DNA of 64,000 nt from an uncultured Planctomycetia bacterium (lineage in GTDB: Bacteria > Omnitrophota > Gorgyraeia > Duberdicusellales > 4484-171), in the NCBI GenBank assembly GCA_964455085.1, contig CAYVYJ010000005.1, positions 21,239 to 85,238 on the forward strand. Reading direction: 5' to 3'. This document shows positions 284-55,503 of the stretch, piece by piece; positions within the stretch are counted from its first letter, which is position 1, and each line of letters begins with the position of its first letter. The notes below the pieces were generated by a model that was not told the origin of the DNA, ran no database searches, and saw only the letters and a program-made list of their open reading frames with translations. The position numbers and the translations under genes are program-made.

Positions 284-354
284 TGCACCCTGATTTCTTG
301 GCCCGGAAAATAAAAATTTTAGGTTATTATTCCGCGTAAAACCTAAAGTTAATT

Positions 355-570
355 CTTTCCGGCAGGTCTTCTGACTTCCTTGCCTCATCCTAGCCACCTT
401 CCCATCAGCCTTAGACTGATAGTGGTTCAAAGCGCTAAGAGAATTTTCTTGACTTATGCCAAGAGCAAGATTACAGCACCGGGAGTGTCTCCGATTCTCA
501 CGGAGTTCCCTATTATGCCTTGCCCGGTTAGAAAAATTTTTCTAACCGGATTTCACGGCACCGAAAAAAA
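355..570 (-). promoter_or_regulatory. Cobalamin (B12) riboswitch aptamer
   Basis: The minus-strand transcript carries several conserved cobalamin-riboswitch elements. These are AAUAGGGAA, the CCGUGAGAAUCGG element (GGUGAAAAUCC-like), CCACU...CUGAUGGGAAGGUGG, and a B12 box AAGUCAGAAGACCUGCCGG at 361..377 that matches rAGYCMGgAgaCCkGCc. The 320-bp region has no credible ORF; the track ORF at 380..580 translates to low-complexity nonsense. Confidence 0.75.
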
Positions 571-639
571 TAATCCTTAACTTCCAAAGAACAGATTTAT
601 TCTATCTTTCTTGATTGTCTTGTCAATATTTTTTTATCC

Positions 640-660
640 TGCGCCCGGGCCGAATCGCAT
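640..660. repeat. Partial duplicate of the tRNA-Arg 3' end, about 18 of 20 nt identical (att-like remnant)
   Basis: tgcgcccgggccgaatcgca at 640..659 versus tgcgcccgggccgactcgaa at 784..803, which is the 3' acceptor/T-arm end of the tRNA. Confidence 0.45.
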
Positions 661-717
661 CCAATCTGCCGAAGGCAGCCCGGTTGAGGCTAAGCCTCAA
701 CCGGCAATATTGGATCC
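657..717. repeat. Structured palindromic intergenic element, copy A. The core is the 24-mer cggttgaggctaagcctcaaccgg at 681..704, with a flanking gccgaaggc hairpin and atccaat/attggat inverted repeats.
   Basis: An identical 24-mer core occurs at 55211..55234 in the opposite orientation, with the same caatct + gccgaaggc flank architecture. Confidence 0.6.
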
Positions 718-783
718 GAGAATAGTCTCTATATTAAACAACGGCTTGTCAGCACAATGAGGCTAACAGATTAGCTAAAACTA

Positions 784-856
784 TGCGCCCGGGCCGACTC
801 GAACGGCCACATCAGCCTTAGGAGGGCCGCGCTCTATCCTGTTGAGCTACGGGCGC
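784..856 (-). tRNA. tRNA-Arg (anticodon CCU). CCA is not encoded.
   Basis: The reverse complement folds as a canonical cloverleaf: acceptor GCGCCCG/CGGGCGC, D-stem GCTC/GAGC, anticodon stem CGGCC/GGCTG with loop CTCCTAA (anticodon CCT), T-stem GGCCG/CGGCC with loop TTCGAGT, 73 nt. Confidence 0.85.
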
Positions 857-10013: not shown

Positions 10014-10079
10014 CTGTTTAGGATTCGCCTAAACAGAGGAAGCCGGAAAGGAGCTGCTGTTTAGGCGAATCCTAAACAG
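10014..10079. repeat. Large inverted-repeat element. Its two 23-nt arms (ctgtttaggattcgcctaaacag and its reverse complement) are separated by a 20-nt spacer, and each arm is itself palindromic (tttagg-attcg-cctaaa).
   Basis: The architecture (arm, roughly 20-nt spacer beginning agg, arm) is the same as the element at 43089..43153. Confidence 0.6.
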
Positions 10080-27131: not shown

Positions 27132-27189
27132 CCTAATTAAATTTTAAATTGTTAATAGTGGAAAGCTTCTCAAGAAAAACCATATTACT

Positions 27190-27207
27190 TTGTGAATAAA
27201 ATCACAA
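27190..27207. promoter_or_regulatory. Predicted Rex operator TTGTGAATAAAATCACAA in the promoter region of the hydrogenase operon
   Basis: 17 of 18 positions match the TTGTGAA-N4-TTCACAA Rex consensus. It lies 59 bp upstream of the asrA-like start in an AT-rich 170-bp intergenic region, and rex is encoded in the same operon. Confidence 0.65.
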
Positions 27208-27301
27208 TCGTAATAAATAATCGTACCATACAAGAATAAGCTTGTCAAACAATTTTTATTAATTAATCAAGCTGACTACTAAAAATATACAGATTGGGGA
27301 T

Positions 27302-41522: not shown

Positions 41523-42395
41523 TTACCTTACCCCTGCTATATCCAACTCTGCCAATATATCTTCTACGCAATCAACCAACTTTGCCCCTTCCTTGATTAA
41601 AATATGTGTGCCCTTACTCAAGGGGGAGTTTAGGCTCCCGGGAATAGCAAAAACCTCTCGATTCTGCTCACAAGCTAGGTGGGCAGTTATCAGCGCGCCG
41701 CTACGCGAACTAGCTTCGACAACTAATACGCCCCGGGACATCCCGCTTACGATTCTGTTCCGACGGGGAAAGTTTTCCTTCGACGGTGCCGCAAGCATGG
41801 GGAATTCCGAAATAACTGCACCTTTGGCAGCAATTTCATCAACTAATCCTTTATTTTCCCGAGGATAAATATTCAACAAACCACTACCGAGAACAGCTAT
41901 AGTTTCCCCGTCTTGGATTGCTTGACGATGAGCAACAGTATCTATTCCTTTAGCTAAACCCGATATGATAACCATACCCTTTTGGCAAAGTTGAGCCGTA
42001 AAATCTTTAGTTATCGAGATACCGTAACCGGTAGGCTTGCGACTACCCACAATAGCGAAGGAAAATTTATTCAAAATCGCACGACTACCCTTAAGATAAA
42101 GGACTATTGGTGGGTTACTTATTTCTTTCAGCAGCTGGGGATAATCAGAATCAAAGATATCGAGGCAATCTATCTTTTCTTTAGCAATTAAATCCAATTC
42201 CCGGCTAAGAATCGTTGAAGCTCTCAAAGTCAATATTCTTTCAATGTCTTTATCCGGAAGGTAAGCAATACTCTTAAAATCACTAACCCCAACCTTAAAT
42301 ATCCTGTCAATATCTTCGAAGTGATAAAGAATACCAGAAATCTTCCCGGGGCTTAAATTTAAGAGGTTGAGCAGAATTGTACCCTTCTTAGCCAT
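41523..42395 (-). CDS. dprA: DNA-processing protein DprA (Smf)
   Basis: The Rossmann-like DprA core AIVGSRKPTGYG...VVEASSRSGALITA is present. Confidence 0.85.
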   Translation of the reverse strand: MAKKGTILLNLLNLSPGKISGILYHFEDIDRIFKVGVSDFKSIAYLPDKDIERILTLRASTILSRELDLIAKEKIDCLDIFDSDYPQLLKEISNPPIVLYLKGSRAILNKFSFAIVGSRKPTGYGISITKDFTAQLCQKGMVIISGLAKGIDTVAHRQAIQDGETIAVLGSGLLNIYPRENKGLVDEIAAKGAVISEFPMLAAPSKENFPRRNRIVSGMSRGVLVVEASSRSGALITAHLACEQNREVFAIPGSLNSPLSKGTHILIKEGAKLVDCVEDILAELDIAGVR

Positions 42396-42894
42396 TGTTT
42401 AAAATCGATATAATTCTATTAGCAATTTCTTCCGGGGATAGGTTATCAGTATCAATTGAGTAGTGAGCCTGGGCATAATAAGGAGCTCTTTCTTCAAGCA
42501 ATTGCTTAATCTTCTCTTGGGGATTGTCAACATTGAGAATCGGACGATGAGTATGTTTGTTTATCCTTTCATAAGTTGTTAAAGCCGATGCCTTAAGGCA
42601 AAATACGGTTCCGGTCTCTCTAAGCCGCTTTAAATTCTCCTTATCACAAATAAGCCCGCCTCCGCAACTAATTACCAAATCCTCCTTGGCTGACAACTCT
42701 TTAAGCAATTCCCGCTCCAGCTTGCGGAAGTAAACCTCACCCTTCTTGGCAAAAATATCTACTATTCTCAAACCTTCCCGCTCGGCAATGACCGCATCCA
42801 TTTCCAGAAACTCCTTGGCCAGACGTTCAGCCAGGATTCCAGCGACAGTAGTCTTACCACTACCCATAAACCCTACTAAATAAATATTTTTCAT
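42388..42894 (-). CDS. aroK: Shikimate kinase
   Basis: The P-loop GFMGSGKTTV is present and the length is 168 aa. Confidence 0.85.
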   Translation of the reverse strand: MKNIYLVGFMGSGKTTVAGILAERLAKEFLEMDAVIAEREGLRIVDIFAKKGEVYFRKLERELLKELSAKEDLVISCGGGLICDKENLKRLRETGTVFCLKASALTTYERINKHTHRPILNVDNPQEKIKQLLEERAPYYAQAHYSIDTDNLSPEEIANRIISILNNG

Positions 42895-43055
42895 CGCTTA
42901 CCTACAATGGTTCTTCTATGCTCTTATTGCCTCTTTCCCTCATTTTAAGACTTTGTTGTCCAGCACTGGTAATGATGGATATAATATATTATTGAGGCTT
43001 CGCCTCAATAAACTTGCTGCGCAAGATTATATACATCGCTTACCTATAATGGTTC
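42892..43055. repeat. 22-bp direct repeats (catcgcttacctacaatggttc at 42892..42913 and catcgcttacctataatggttc at 43034..43055) flank a 120-bp insert that contains the palindrome attgaggcttcgcctcaat at 42991..43009
   Basis: The first copy includes the aroK start codon. The palindrome belongs to the ttgagg-N5-cctcaa family seen at 681 and 55211. Confidence 0.55.
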
Positions 43056-43066
43056 ATTCTGCTTAT

Positions 43067-43153
43067 CGGTTTAGGCTTCTCTGCTTATCGGTTTAGGCTT
43101 CGCCTAAACCGAGGCCCCCAGAAGAAACTACGGTTTAGGCGAAGCCTAAACCG
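43067..43153. repeat. Inverted-repeat element: a partial arm at 43067..43088, then cggtttaggcttcgcctaaaccg (43089..43111), a 19-nt spacer, and its reverse complement (43131..43153)
   Basis: It has the same arm/spacer/arm design as 10014..10079 and an arm core tttagg-N5-cctaaa. Confidence 0.6.
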
Positions 43154-55003: not shown

Positions 55004-55117
55004 TTAACCCTGTCTTTGCTTATGCTTAGGGTTTTTACAGATAATCCTTACAATTTTTTTCCTCTTTATTATCTTACATTTATCACAAATTCGCTTAACT
55101 GACGCTTTAACTTTCAT
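55004..55117 (-). CDS. rpmJ: 50S ribosomal protein L36
   Basis: Manual translation gives [37 protein letters not shown]. It is not in the ORF track because it is only 37 aa. Confidence 0.85.
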
Positions 55118-55197
55118 CTCTTACCTACACTAGTTTTGTTCTGCTATATTATCTTTTACTTTCCTTTAAAACTTTATTGTCGATCAACGACAATGAT

Positions 55198-55260
55198 GGA
55201 TGCAATTTATCGGTTGAGGCTAAGCCTCAACCGGCTCCGCCTTCGGCGGAGATTGCATAC
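55198..55260. repeat. Structured palindromic intergenic element, copy B, carrying the same 24-mer core (55211..55234) as 681..704 in the opposite orientation
   Basis: ggatgcaat...CORE...ccgccttcggcgg...attgcatac. The reverse complement aligns with copy A (caatct + g/ccgaaggc hairpin + core). Confidence 0.6.
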
Positions 55261-55284
55261 ATCTTAATCAGCCTCTTCTAATAT

Positions 55285-55503
55285 CTATTTCTCGCGATAA
55301 GTTATTCTTCCTCTGGTTAAATCGTAAGGAGAAAGCTCTAACTTCACCTTGTCTCCGGGAAGAATCCTGATAAAATGCATTCGCATCTTACCAGAAACAT
55401 GAGCCAAAACAATATGCCCATTCTCCAGCTTCACCCTAAACATTGCATTCGGTAAAGCTTCTACGATCTCACCTTCAACTGCGATTAATTCTTCTTTTGC
55501 CAT
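55285..55503 (-). CDS. infA: Translation initiation factor IF-1
   Basis: 72 aa, S1-like. Confidence 0.9.

Follow-up and report, generated by a model that had tools for sequence, protein, structure and literature searches.

A probable REP hairpin nested in a non-autonomous carrier element at tRNA ends and start codons of an Omnitrophota bacterium

A palindromic 24-mer, CGGTTGAGGCTAAGCCTCAACCGG, has exact matches at 681-704 (copy A) and 55211-55234 (copy B) of a 64-kb stretch of contig CAYVYJ010000005.1 (assembly GCA_964455085.1), which comes from an uncultured bacterium of the Omnitrophota and is referred to as a whole as the window. The 24-mer is most likely a repetitive extragenic palindromic (REP) sequence, the recognition hairpin of a domesticated IS200-like transposase. 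Taken together, the evidence makes it probable that this REP belongs to a single-copy, vertically inherited IS200-like REP-associated tyrosine transposase (RAYT) and that it is nested in a separate, non-autonomous carrier element located at tRNA ends and start codons. To our knowledge, REP/RAYT systems have been studied almost only in Proteobacteria.

RESULTS AND DISCUSSION

A family of palindromic hairpins in the window

The window is compact (40.5% G+C), and all of its called genes lie on the minus strand. A sequence-only reading of this DNA had reported an identical 24-nt palindromic core at two loci. This was borne out, with 0 of 100 dinucleotide-preserving shuffles containing a match to the 24-mer when up to 3 mismatches were tolerated. 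Copy A lies 64 nt from tRNA-Arg(CCT) (784-856, minus strand), and copy B lies between infA (55285-55503) and rpmJ (55004-55117) in the ribosomal operon, as had been read. Also as described, each copy has a caatct tract, a small GAA-loop hairpin and an outer inverted repeat, and the two loci carry this arrangement in opposite orientations. Copies beyond these two exist as well: the relaxed core TTNAGGC-N3-GCCTNAA occurs 8 times in the window against 0.37 expected, with two perfect inverted doublets counted in, and the window holds 7 hairpins of the family.

The REP hairpin is a perfect palindrome of 24 to 25 nt with a stem of 11 to 12 bp and a loop of 3 nt, and it can fold as RNA or as DNA. Although mutually inverted, copies A and B read the same on the plus strand, because the central loop base flips between TAA and TTA. 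These two states are roughly equally frequent among copies of the larger element that have the same orientation. A rule tying the loop base to gene strand was rejected, being inconsistent across loci. The two doublets represent a sister hairpin type, C[GT]GTTTAGG...CCTAAAC[CA]G, and their 23-nt arms are 100% complementary, loop included. The hairpins of the window and the associated duplication are listed here; loci fetched from related genomes and assemblies carry L numbers.

680-704: REP hairpin, copy A, including the 24-mer at 681-704; an identical hairpin is found beside the RAYT-like gene of L072, L094, L170 and L171.
55211-55234: REP hairpin, copy B, equal to the 24-mer.
10014-10079: REPIN-like doublet, CTGTTTAGGATTCGCCTAAACAG and its exact reverse complement with a 20-nt spacer, between aldo/keto reductase and epimerase genes.
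43089-43153: REPIN-like doublet, made of the 23-nt REP hairpin CGGTTTAGGCTTCGCCTAAACCG and, 19 nt away, its exact reverse complement.
43058-43101: tandem duplication, 22 nt present twice, made of the outer half of the neighbouring REP and 9 nt of flank; the same kind occurs in L067 and L072.

The doublet at 43089-43153 folds at -50.1 kcal/mol (z = -9.4), and its hairpin variant also flanks a RAYT orthologue in L160 and L161.

The 24-mer corresponds to the hairpin flanking a RAYT-like gene

One genome per species was scanned for GGTTKAGGCNNNGCCTMAACC, and all site counts obtained in this way are lower bounds. The scan matched at least 14 sites in JBDRJF01 and at least 13 sites in CAZHVO01. JBDRJF01 is a close relative: its SecY, encoded on contig JBDRJF010000001.1 and annotated 'Candidatus Omnitrophota bacterium', shares a 90%-identity cluster with the SecY of the window. 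Besides JBDRJF01, the genomes with sites comprised two other Omnitrophota metagenome-assembled genomes (MAGs) and three Planctomycetia-labelled MAGs that share the same elements. Over the window and the related MAG loci, 41 of 42 hairpins lie outside open reading frames (ORFs) of at least 150 aa, which agrees with the intergenic confinement anticipated from the first copies.

In JBDRJF01 (L072), four hairpins occur within 4 kb, and a 236-aa ORF has one of them on either side, GGTTGAGGCTWAGCCTCAACC in both cases, 10 and 20 nt away. The encoded protein matches the IS200-like Pfam family Y1_Tnp above the curated cut-off, with the HUH motif NHFHLLL and the Tyr motif YIQVKNP. An 83%-identical protein of CAZHVO01 (L094) is bracketed by REP in like manner. 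Two Logan contigs, L170 (run SRR8146440) and L171 (run SRR31802796), hold a RAYT-like protein of the same 90% cluster, and there the gene has CGGTTGAGGCTTAGCCTCAACCG on its upstream side and CGGTTGAGGCTAAGCCTCAACCG on its downstream side, in other words the core of the 24-mer. Run SRR8146440 also holds the exact InfA of the window, and SRR31802796 is a sister run of others that hold this InfA.

The hairpins change with the gene that they flank. At RAYT orthologues of 77%, 67% and 59% identity, they differ in sequence yet are all of the type GTTTAGG...CCTAAAC, and the variant found at one orthologue is that of the window's doublets. With the genes of 100% and 83% identity included, the hairpins keep the type GTT[TG]AGG...CCT[AC]AAC. 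The gene itself stands in a conserved synteny, SpoVG-RAYT-DprA-ComM(-YraN), across Omnitrophota (L072 179-4243, L160, L162, L164 and L170). Homologues of the RAYT-like protein numbered 633 at E <= 1e-5, in Omnitrophota and Patescibacteria, most of them on few contigs (1 to 8). Given the hairpin-flanked Y1 gene, the co-varying hairpins of the orthologues and the 41 of 42 extragenic positions, the 24-mer core is therefore taken to be a REP.

Several candidates for related sites or genes were set aside. The DprA gene of the window (41523-42395) was considered as the RAYT-syntenic site and rejected, since its product shares no more than 43% identity with the DprA that accompanies the RAYT in the close relative and is thus a paralogue. 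JBDRJF01 has a second, classical RAYT (L057 4186-4758; Y1_Tnp 64 bits, motifs HVHLL and YIELNPVRAG). It was rejected as the owner of hairpin 1 of the larger unit described below, since it is flanked by an unrelated inverted repeat (GGGGACGGTTCTC / GAGAACCGTCCCC). Matches to a 21-nt pattern across phyla (Opitutae, Terriglobia, Bacteroides, Saccharibacteria and others) were likewise discarded, since their flanks proved to belong to REP-like families of other kinds or to terminators. In 596 Gb such matches are to be expected, because the palindrome holds only about 9 nt of independent information. The core had 0 matches among the viral contigs of IMG/VR.

Among the loci with these cross-phylum matches (L009-L112 set), the Opitutae MAG CAIYFD01 carries the 21-nt palindrome within GTAG-tagged REP doublets of an unrelated multi-copy family. 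Terriglobia/Acidobacteriota MAGs of the same set carry an unrelated multi-copy unit of three hairpins (cggaaaggc..gcctttccg, ggttgaggc..gcctcaacc and ggcgaggc..gcctcgcc). The RAYT-like gene adjoins DprA-ComM also in a contig with a protein annotated as Paceibacterota, and the stretch from spoVG to the upstream REP contains a conserved hairpin, ATTGGGGGTTATCCAYAAAGGAYACCCCCAAT. Tandem duplications of 17 to 22 nt were seen in three independent cases (window 43058-43101, L067 near 4230 and L072 near 2170). Each begins in a REP loop and spans the 3' half of the hairpin with 7 to 9 nt of flank. These duplications may have been left behind when the hairpin was cleaved or excised.

The REP is hairpin 2 of a Y-shaped core probably conserved at the DNA level

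Copies A and B are embedded in a 66-nt unit that forms a three-way junction, here called the Y-shaped core, with an 11-bp outer stem containing one mismatch, hairpin 1 (5 to 7 bp) and hairpin 2 (10 to 12 bp), the last being the 24-mer. The recurrence of the core at 42991-43009, previously noticed as such, proved to be more than a core match, namely a complete third copy of the 66-nt unit. The three copies, referred to as elements A, B and C, have the following parts; bit scores are those of a covariance model of the unit built from 16 copies of the window and related genomes.

640-657, minus strand: far direct repeat of element A, which repeats 18 nt of tRNA-Arg (17/18 identical to 784-801), from T-loop position 56 through the discriminator at the 3' end.
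655-719, plus strand: Y-shaped core of element A, with outer stem 655-665/709-719 (C·C mismatch), hairpin 1 at 666-678 and hairpin 2 (REP) at 680-704; 72.8 bits.
720-783, plus strand: body of element A, with the terminal AAAACTA of the family at its end, abutting the tRNA.
784-856, minus strand: tRNA-Arg(CCT), intact (ARAGORN; Rfam tRNA 61.9 bits); 784-801 is the near copy of the 18-nt direct repeat.
55260-55284, minus strand: native infA-rpmJ spacer with the original ribosome-binding site (RBS) and ATG (atattagaagaggctgattaagATG); this ATG now opens an 11-codon frame running into element B.
55196-55262, minus strand: Y-shaped core of element B, with outer stem 55252-55262/55196-55206 (T·C mismatch), hairpin 1 at 55235-55251 and hairpin 2 (REP) at 55211-55234; 93 bits.
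55115-55195, minus strand: body and tail of element B, namely CCATCATT, hairpin 3 (55176-55194), AAAGTTTTAAA, an A-rich stretch, the tail CTAGTGTAGGTAAGAG (55118-55133) and the final ATG (55115-55117).
42975-43036, minus strand: Y-shaped core of element C, in which the REP at hairpin 2 (42989-43011) has diverged to TTATTGAGGCGAAGCCTCAATAA and outer stem pairs show compensatory changes; 63.1 bits.
42892-42974, minus strand: body and tail of element C, ending in TTGTAGGTAAGCG and the ATG (42892-42894) that starts a shikimate kinase gene (aroK; Pfam SKI, E = 1.7e-44).
43034-43060, minus strand: left direct repeat of element C, agaatgaaccattataggtaagcgATG, a 26/27 match to the tail of element C.

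The covariance model thus confirmed the larger architecture that had been proposed for copies A and B, together with their opposite orientations, and nothing else comparable scored in the window. Folding gave the three-way junction in all three elements, both as RNA (z = -3.7 to -7.5; -5.9 to -7.5 for A and B) and as single-stranded DNA (z = -5.6 to -9.2; -7.2 to -9.2 for A and B), and both strands of the Y core fold equally well. Standard pairs occupy 96.9% of the pair cells of the 16 copies, with compensatory changes at 9 pairs, a degree of pairing and covariation that was reached by 0 of 500 shuffles. The pyrimidine·C mismatch of the outer stem is invariant (16/16). The non-Watson-Crick cells comprise 6 G·T (G·U) and 5 A·C, which favours neither strand. 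Since the helices covary with no excess of G·U over A·C, the alignment points to conservation of the Y core at the level of DNA rather than of RNA.

This bears on the possibility that the units are primarily structured RNA, that is, a cis-regulatory leader, a processing or decay signal or a small RNA, for example one protecting the secY-adk-map-infA message against 3' exonucleases or setting rpmJ translation. Elements B and C are certainly transcribed within operons or 5' untranslated regions (UTRs), the folds are very stable, the helices covary, and REPs are known to stabilise upstream mRNA and to attenuate transcription (PMC3733652). However, element A and all tRNA-linked copies have the opposite orientation to the start-codon copies relative to the local transcript, there is no wobble bias, and the DNA folds equally well on both strands. 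The elements have no Rfam match at the gathering threshold or at E <= 5, where only a cobalamin riboswitch and the tRNA pass in the window. Moreover, the element is absent from the infA-rpmJ site of five relatives with 92 to 100% identical InfA, and its core hairpin flanks a transposase gene. A primary RNA role is therefore very improbable. Of the two identities that had been offered for the family, REP/MITE-like repeat (MITE, miniature inverted-repeat transposable element) or small structured RNA motif, the first stands, on the strength of the RAYT-flanking hairpin, the copy number, the extragenic positions and the empty sites, and the second is not favoured.

The idea that the hairpins are ordinary intrinsic terminators that resemble each other by accident, or that the two-copy match arose by chance, is refuted and retains next to no weight. 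The hairpins are indeed G+C-rich, intergenic stem-loops, several unrelated single scan matches are clearly terminators with A and T runs (L025, L036 and L042), and in a terminator scan element C and one arm of the 43-kb doublet register as terminator-like. The same scan, however, detected no such site at A or B. Element B lies within a ribosomal protein operon, and element C and one doublet are preceded by a promoter and form part of a 5' UTR. The absence of the 24-mer from all 100 shuffles and the 66-nt architecture common to 16 copies across genomes argue in the same direction.

The Y core heads a carrier element with two sub-types

The Y core is the head of a non-coding element of 126 to 145 bp that lies between direct repeats of the interrupted host sequence. 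The window has 3 copies of it, and the fetched loci have at least 17. When copies were aligned with their flanks, two sub-types were seen, a tRNA type that includes element A and a start-codon type that includes elements B and C.

In the direction of the tRNA, the tRNA type consists of the intact tRNA, TAGTTTT, a variable body of about 60 nt, the Y core and an 18-nt copy of the tRNA 3' end. This 18-nt repeat spans T-loop position 56 to the discriminator and was found at eight tRNA sites, including that of the window. It matches 18/18 at tRNA-Glu, tRNA-Leu(CAA) and tRNA-Val of related MAGs, 17/18 at the tRNA-Arg of the window and at two other sites, and 15-16/18 at two more sites, where the far copy has an extra CCA. 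In L013 (near 3840) and L057 (near 2090), CCA follows the far repeat and the adjacent tRNA gene has no encoded CCA; L098 shows the reverse.

The start-codon type starts directly after an ATG preceded by a host-like RBS and continues with the Y core, a third covarying hairpin, an A-rich stretch and CTATTGTAGGTAAGAG-ATG. The final ATG is the working start of a real ORF in 9 of 9 long-form copies, which in the window are rpmJ (element B, 55115-55117) and the shikimate kinase gene (element C). The tail of this sub-type is conserved among unrelated loci and among genomes, and it is therefore element-borne. The tRNA-Arg gene and the rpmJ and aroK frames remain intact because the direct repeat or the element-borne tail restores the interrupted gene.

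The insertion junction always follows [A/T]TG or TCG. The left repeat ends in ATG, TTG or TCG, and these three bases pair with CAT, CAA or CGA where the Y core ends on its 3' side. They covary with the type of target, which places the junction at the base of the Y stem, beside the invariant mismatch. The carrier ends, TATNCAATCT... and ...AAAACTA (plus tail), have no terminal inverted repeats, the inverted repeat being the internal Y stem. A short target-site duplication of fixed length is also lacking, the flanking repeats being 16 to 18 nt or longer and 26/27 to ~9/16 similar. No integrase gene was found in or beside the carrier copies examined.

Element B places a very stable structure 23 nt past the infA stop, and its own RBS replaces the 12-nt infA-rpmJ coupling. 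A sigma-70 scan found no coding-strand promoter inside the element. Stabilisation of the upstream mRNA or altered translation of rpmJ by element B is plausible as a by-product of the insertion, and the RNA processing or decay sites proposed for the ribosomal operon in the sequence-only reading may be a further side effect.

Empty sites and swapped variants

Relatives were fetched via the neighbouring map gene, and their infA-rpmJ spacers were compared; an exact look-up of rpmJ for the relatives gave no record. The spacer measures 167 nt in the window and in an independent Logan assembly (L007). In five relatives with 92 to 100% identical InfA (L008, L113, L114, L115 and L116) it measures 12 to 13 nt, so that these are empty sites, and one of these relatives has InfA and L36 proteins identical to those of the window. 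Spacers of 1 to 31 nt are found in many other bacteria of the compared set. The spacer segment GATTAAGATG beside element B matches the empty-site spacer AGGTAGATTAAAATG of L008, L113 and L115, and this flank is also conserved in JBDRJF01. In L114 the empty site holds an element-type tail (gtgtaggtaaaag) in place of the native spacer (aggtagattaaa).

Occupied sites also differ in what they hold. The more distant L117 has a 177-nt element at the same infA-rpmJ site, in which non-REP sequence replaces hairpin 2. In JBDRJF01 an element with the same left flank has a decayed Y core and a body and tail very different from those of the window, where element B is close to the family consensus. At a tRNA-Val site with conserved flanks, one MAG has a REP-containing variant and another a REP-less one (L020 and L062, respectively). 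Because REP-less variants exist (L117 and L062), the REP is a nested module of the carrier. As far as can be read from these alignments, the carrier has undergone insertion and replacement at fixed sites and probably also loss.

Element B was recovered in independent assemblies. The Logan contigs that contain the infA of the window (L001-L006 and L167-L169) end 52 to 66 nt past the gene, inside element B.

How the REP and the carrier may move

By analogy with the REP/RAYT systems of E. coli and Pseudomonas, the REP is presumably moved by the RAYT. This Y1/HUH protein would recognise the REP hairpin on single-stranded DNA, nick it and copy it to new extragenic sites, where it would be found alone, as inverted doublets (REPINs) or nested in other repeats.

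For the carrier, we tentatively suggest a structure-guided, site-specific element that moves as folded single-stranded DNA cut at the base of the Y stem, with a tail that specifies and rebuilds the target and with the RAYT or another recombinase as the enzyme; as a complete account we regard it as unlikely to be right in every part. The facts agree best with site-specific recombination of folded DNA, which would take place at the base of the Y stem, beside the invariant mismatch, and the 16- to 18-nt tail would act as an att-like identity block that rebuilds either a tRNA T-loop (an 18-nt repeat to the discriminator base) or a start codon (the tail supplying a new RBS and ATG). Recombination of a folded DNA with such a tail block would explain the survival of the tRNA and of the reading frames, the conservation of the tail, the swaps of whole elements and the spacer of L114. 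The candidate enzymes are a tyrosine recombinase, the RAYT acting in trans, a long-stagger integrase and retroposition of a tRNA trailer.

The carrier may instead be a miniature, att-flanked integrative element similar to a cis-mobilizable element (CIME), served in trans by a tyrosine recombinase at tRNA T-loops and ATGs, with the RAYT uninvolved. This is a substantial possibility, although not the one we would choose. The repeat runs exactly from T-loop to discriminator, which recalls the T-loop sublocation class of integrase sites that Williams is said to have described in 2002 (Nucleic Acids Res). The tail belongs to the element and is conserved from one locus or genome to another, whole elements are replaced between conserved flanks, the final three nucleotides of the repeat form pairs with the Y core at its 3' end and differ in step with the target type, and L114 looks like a site left after integration and excision. 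Set against this are the lack of an integrase gene in or beside any copy examined, a size of 126 to 145 bp that is very small for a double-stranded excision circle, and the failure to find any parent island of full length with matching ends. Furthermore, repeats that match perfectly at many different tRNAs would require many specialised lineages.

Insertion through staggered cuts of about 18 bp, by a transposase that makes long target duplications or by a Cas1/casposase-like enzyme, or else SINE-like (short interspersed nuclear element) retroposition of tRNA 3' trailer RNA, is improbable. In its favour, the repeats are locus specific and perfect or near perfect at the eight tRNAs, L022, L074 and element C, an extra CCA on the far repeat accompanies adjacent tRNA genes without CCA in L013 and L057, and the empty tandem duplications of 17 to 22 nt begin in REP loops. 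However, the left and right repeats are dissimilar in element B, L044, L052 and L108, where the right one fits the family consensus; a true 18-bp target duplication would fit the tRNA repeats and not element B (~9/16). There are also no terminal inverted repeats, no Cas1 or reverse transcriptase was found linked to the elements, and the CCA pattern is reversed in L098.

Returning to the reading that we prefer, a RAYT-owned REP nested in a separate carrier, a number of observations weigh against it or against parts of it. The Pfam match of the RAYT-like protein is weak, at 25.8 bits for a cut-off of 23. No RAYT gene was found in the 64-kb window by tblastn, and its presence in the source genome is inferred from its presence in the close relative and its co-occurrence in shared sequencing runs. 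At the flanks of the singlet and nested REP copies, neither GTAG nor CGTC is conserved; such tags mark two large REP super-families, not REPs as a whole (PMC3733652). As for the carrier, no recombinase was found within the elements or linked to them. An att-like block poorly explains the many tRNAs with perfectly matching repeats. The flanking repeats are uneven, near perfect at the tRNAs and at element C (26/27) and only ~9/16 at element B, and for this reason no single rule, whether target duplication or element-borne copy, fits every copy.

Comparison with known systems

The REPs described here resemble the REP/REPIN-RAYT systems of E. coli, Pseudomonas and Stenotrophomonas in being short, perfect, multi-copy and extragenic palindromes that occur as singlets and inverted doublets. 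Identical copies flank a single-copy, syntenic and vertically inherited Y1/HUH gene, and the hairpin co-varies with the orthologue. They are also nested in other palindromic repeats, as has been described for REPs of T. roseum and H. neapolitanus (PMC3733652). Unlike the known systems, they lack the GTAG/CGTC tag, their 11- to 12-bp stem is perfect, and the central base of their 3-nt loop may be T or A. A further difference lies in the RAYT-like protein, which belongs to a divergent, weakly scoring clade of Omnitrophota and Patescibacteria encoded near dprA-comM.

The carrier shares with bacterial MITEs, such as the Correia/NEMIS elements of Neisseria and the RPEs of Rickettsia, a length of about 100 to 170 bp, a non-autonomous and multi-copy nature, internal inverted repeats and co-transcription with neighbouring genes. 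These elements are likewise tolerated near or in genes with expression preserved; RPEs insert in frame, and Correia elements can supply promoters. Small size, lack of coding capacity, copy number and insertion polymorphism are thus MITE-like traits of the carrier. In contrast with Correia elements and RPEs, its inverted repeat is internal (the Y stem) instead of terminal, its repeats are gene specific and 16 to 18 nt long instead of a fixed duplication of 2 to 10 bp, and it targets tRNA T-loops and start codons, bringing its own RBS and ATG. A classical MITE was rejected on the grounds that terminal inverted repeats and a short fixed duplication are lacking.

With tRNA-integrating islands and CIMEs, which use tyrosine integrases, the carrier has in common direct repeats from the T-loop to the tRNA 3' end, an element-borne copy that rebuilds the gene and re-use of one site by different variants. 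It differs from them in its size (about 130 bp, without an integrase or any other gene), in the three-way palindromic module at the crossover and in having one sub-family at RBS and ATG sites. As in integron attC and CTX-phage attP, the fold rather than the sequence is conserved, an invariant unpaired position distinguishes the strands, and the crossover lies near the base of a stem. The carrier, however, has no GTTRRRY/RYYYAAC core sites, cassette array or intI, forms a three-way junction in place of a single bulged hairpin, and resides in housekeeping operons. An integron attC was rejected by inspection, given that GTTGAGG has G where Y is needed, that the hairpin is 24 nt long and that no arrays are present.

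A REP with its RAYT in Omnitrophota is thus a system of a known kind in a phylum for which we found no literature description, no mention of RAYT or REPIN together with Omnitrophota or Patescibacteria having been found in the papers searched. For the carrier as a composite, with its Y head, gene-specific repeats, tRNA T-loop and start-codon targets and own RBS and ATG, no exact precedent was found, and a search of the literature on tRNA-targeting miniature elements with long duplications gave nothing relevant.

The position of the RAYT beside dprA and comM in a fixed synteny invites a link between REP biology and the processing of single-stranded DNA. The carrier, for its part, sits where insertions would not normally be tolerated, in tRNA genes and at the start codon of rpmJ in the ribosomal operon, and leaves the interrupted gene intact. 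If the tail sets the target, the carrier would be a compact natural example of programmable, non-disruptive insertion and could colonise essential genes harmlessly, the ribosomal protein operon included. On the practical side, short-read assemblies of these genomes are interrupted by the repeats at points that can be predicted.

Other features of the window

Among the few long intergenic regions, that at 27132-27301 (170 nt) has a TTGACA hexamer and no member of the repeat family. Two further features lie in the neighbourhood of the elements.

41523-42395, minus strand: the DprA paralogue (Pfam DNA_processg_A, 264 bits), two genes downstream of element C.
344-580, minus strand: cobalamin riboswitch (Rfam, 92.6 bits), with a near-consensus promoter at 599-626 on the minus strand (TTGACA-16-TAGAAT).

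The promoter at 599-626 lies directly downstream of the far repeat of element A, which therefore stands between tRNA-Arg and the next transcription unit.

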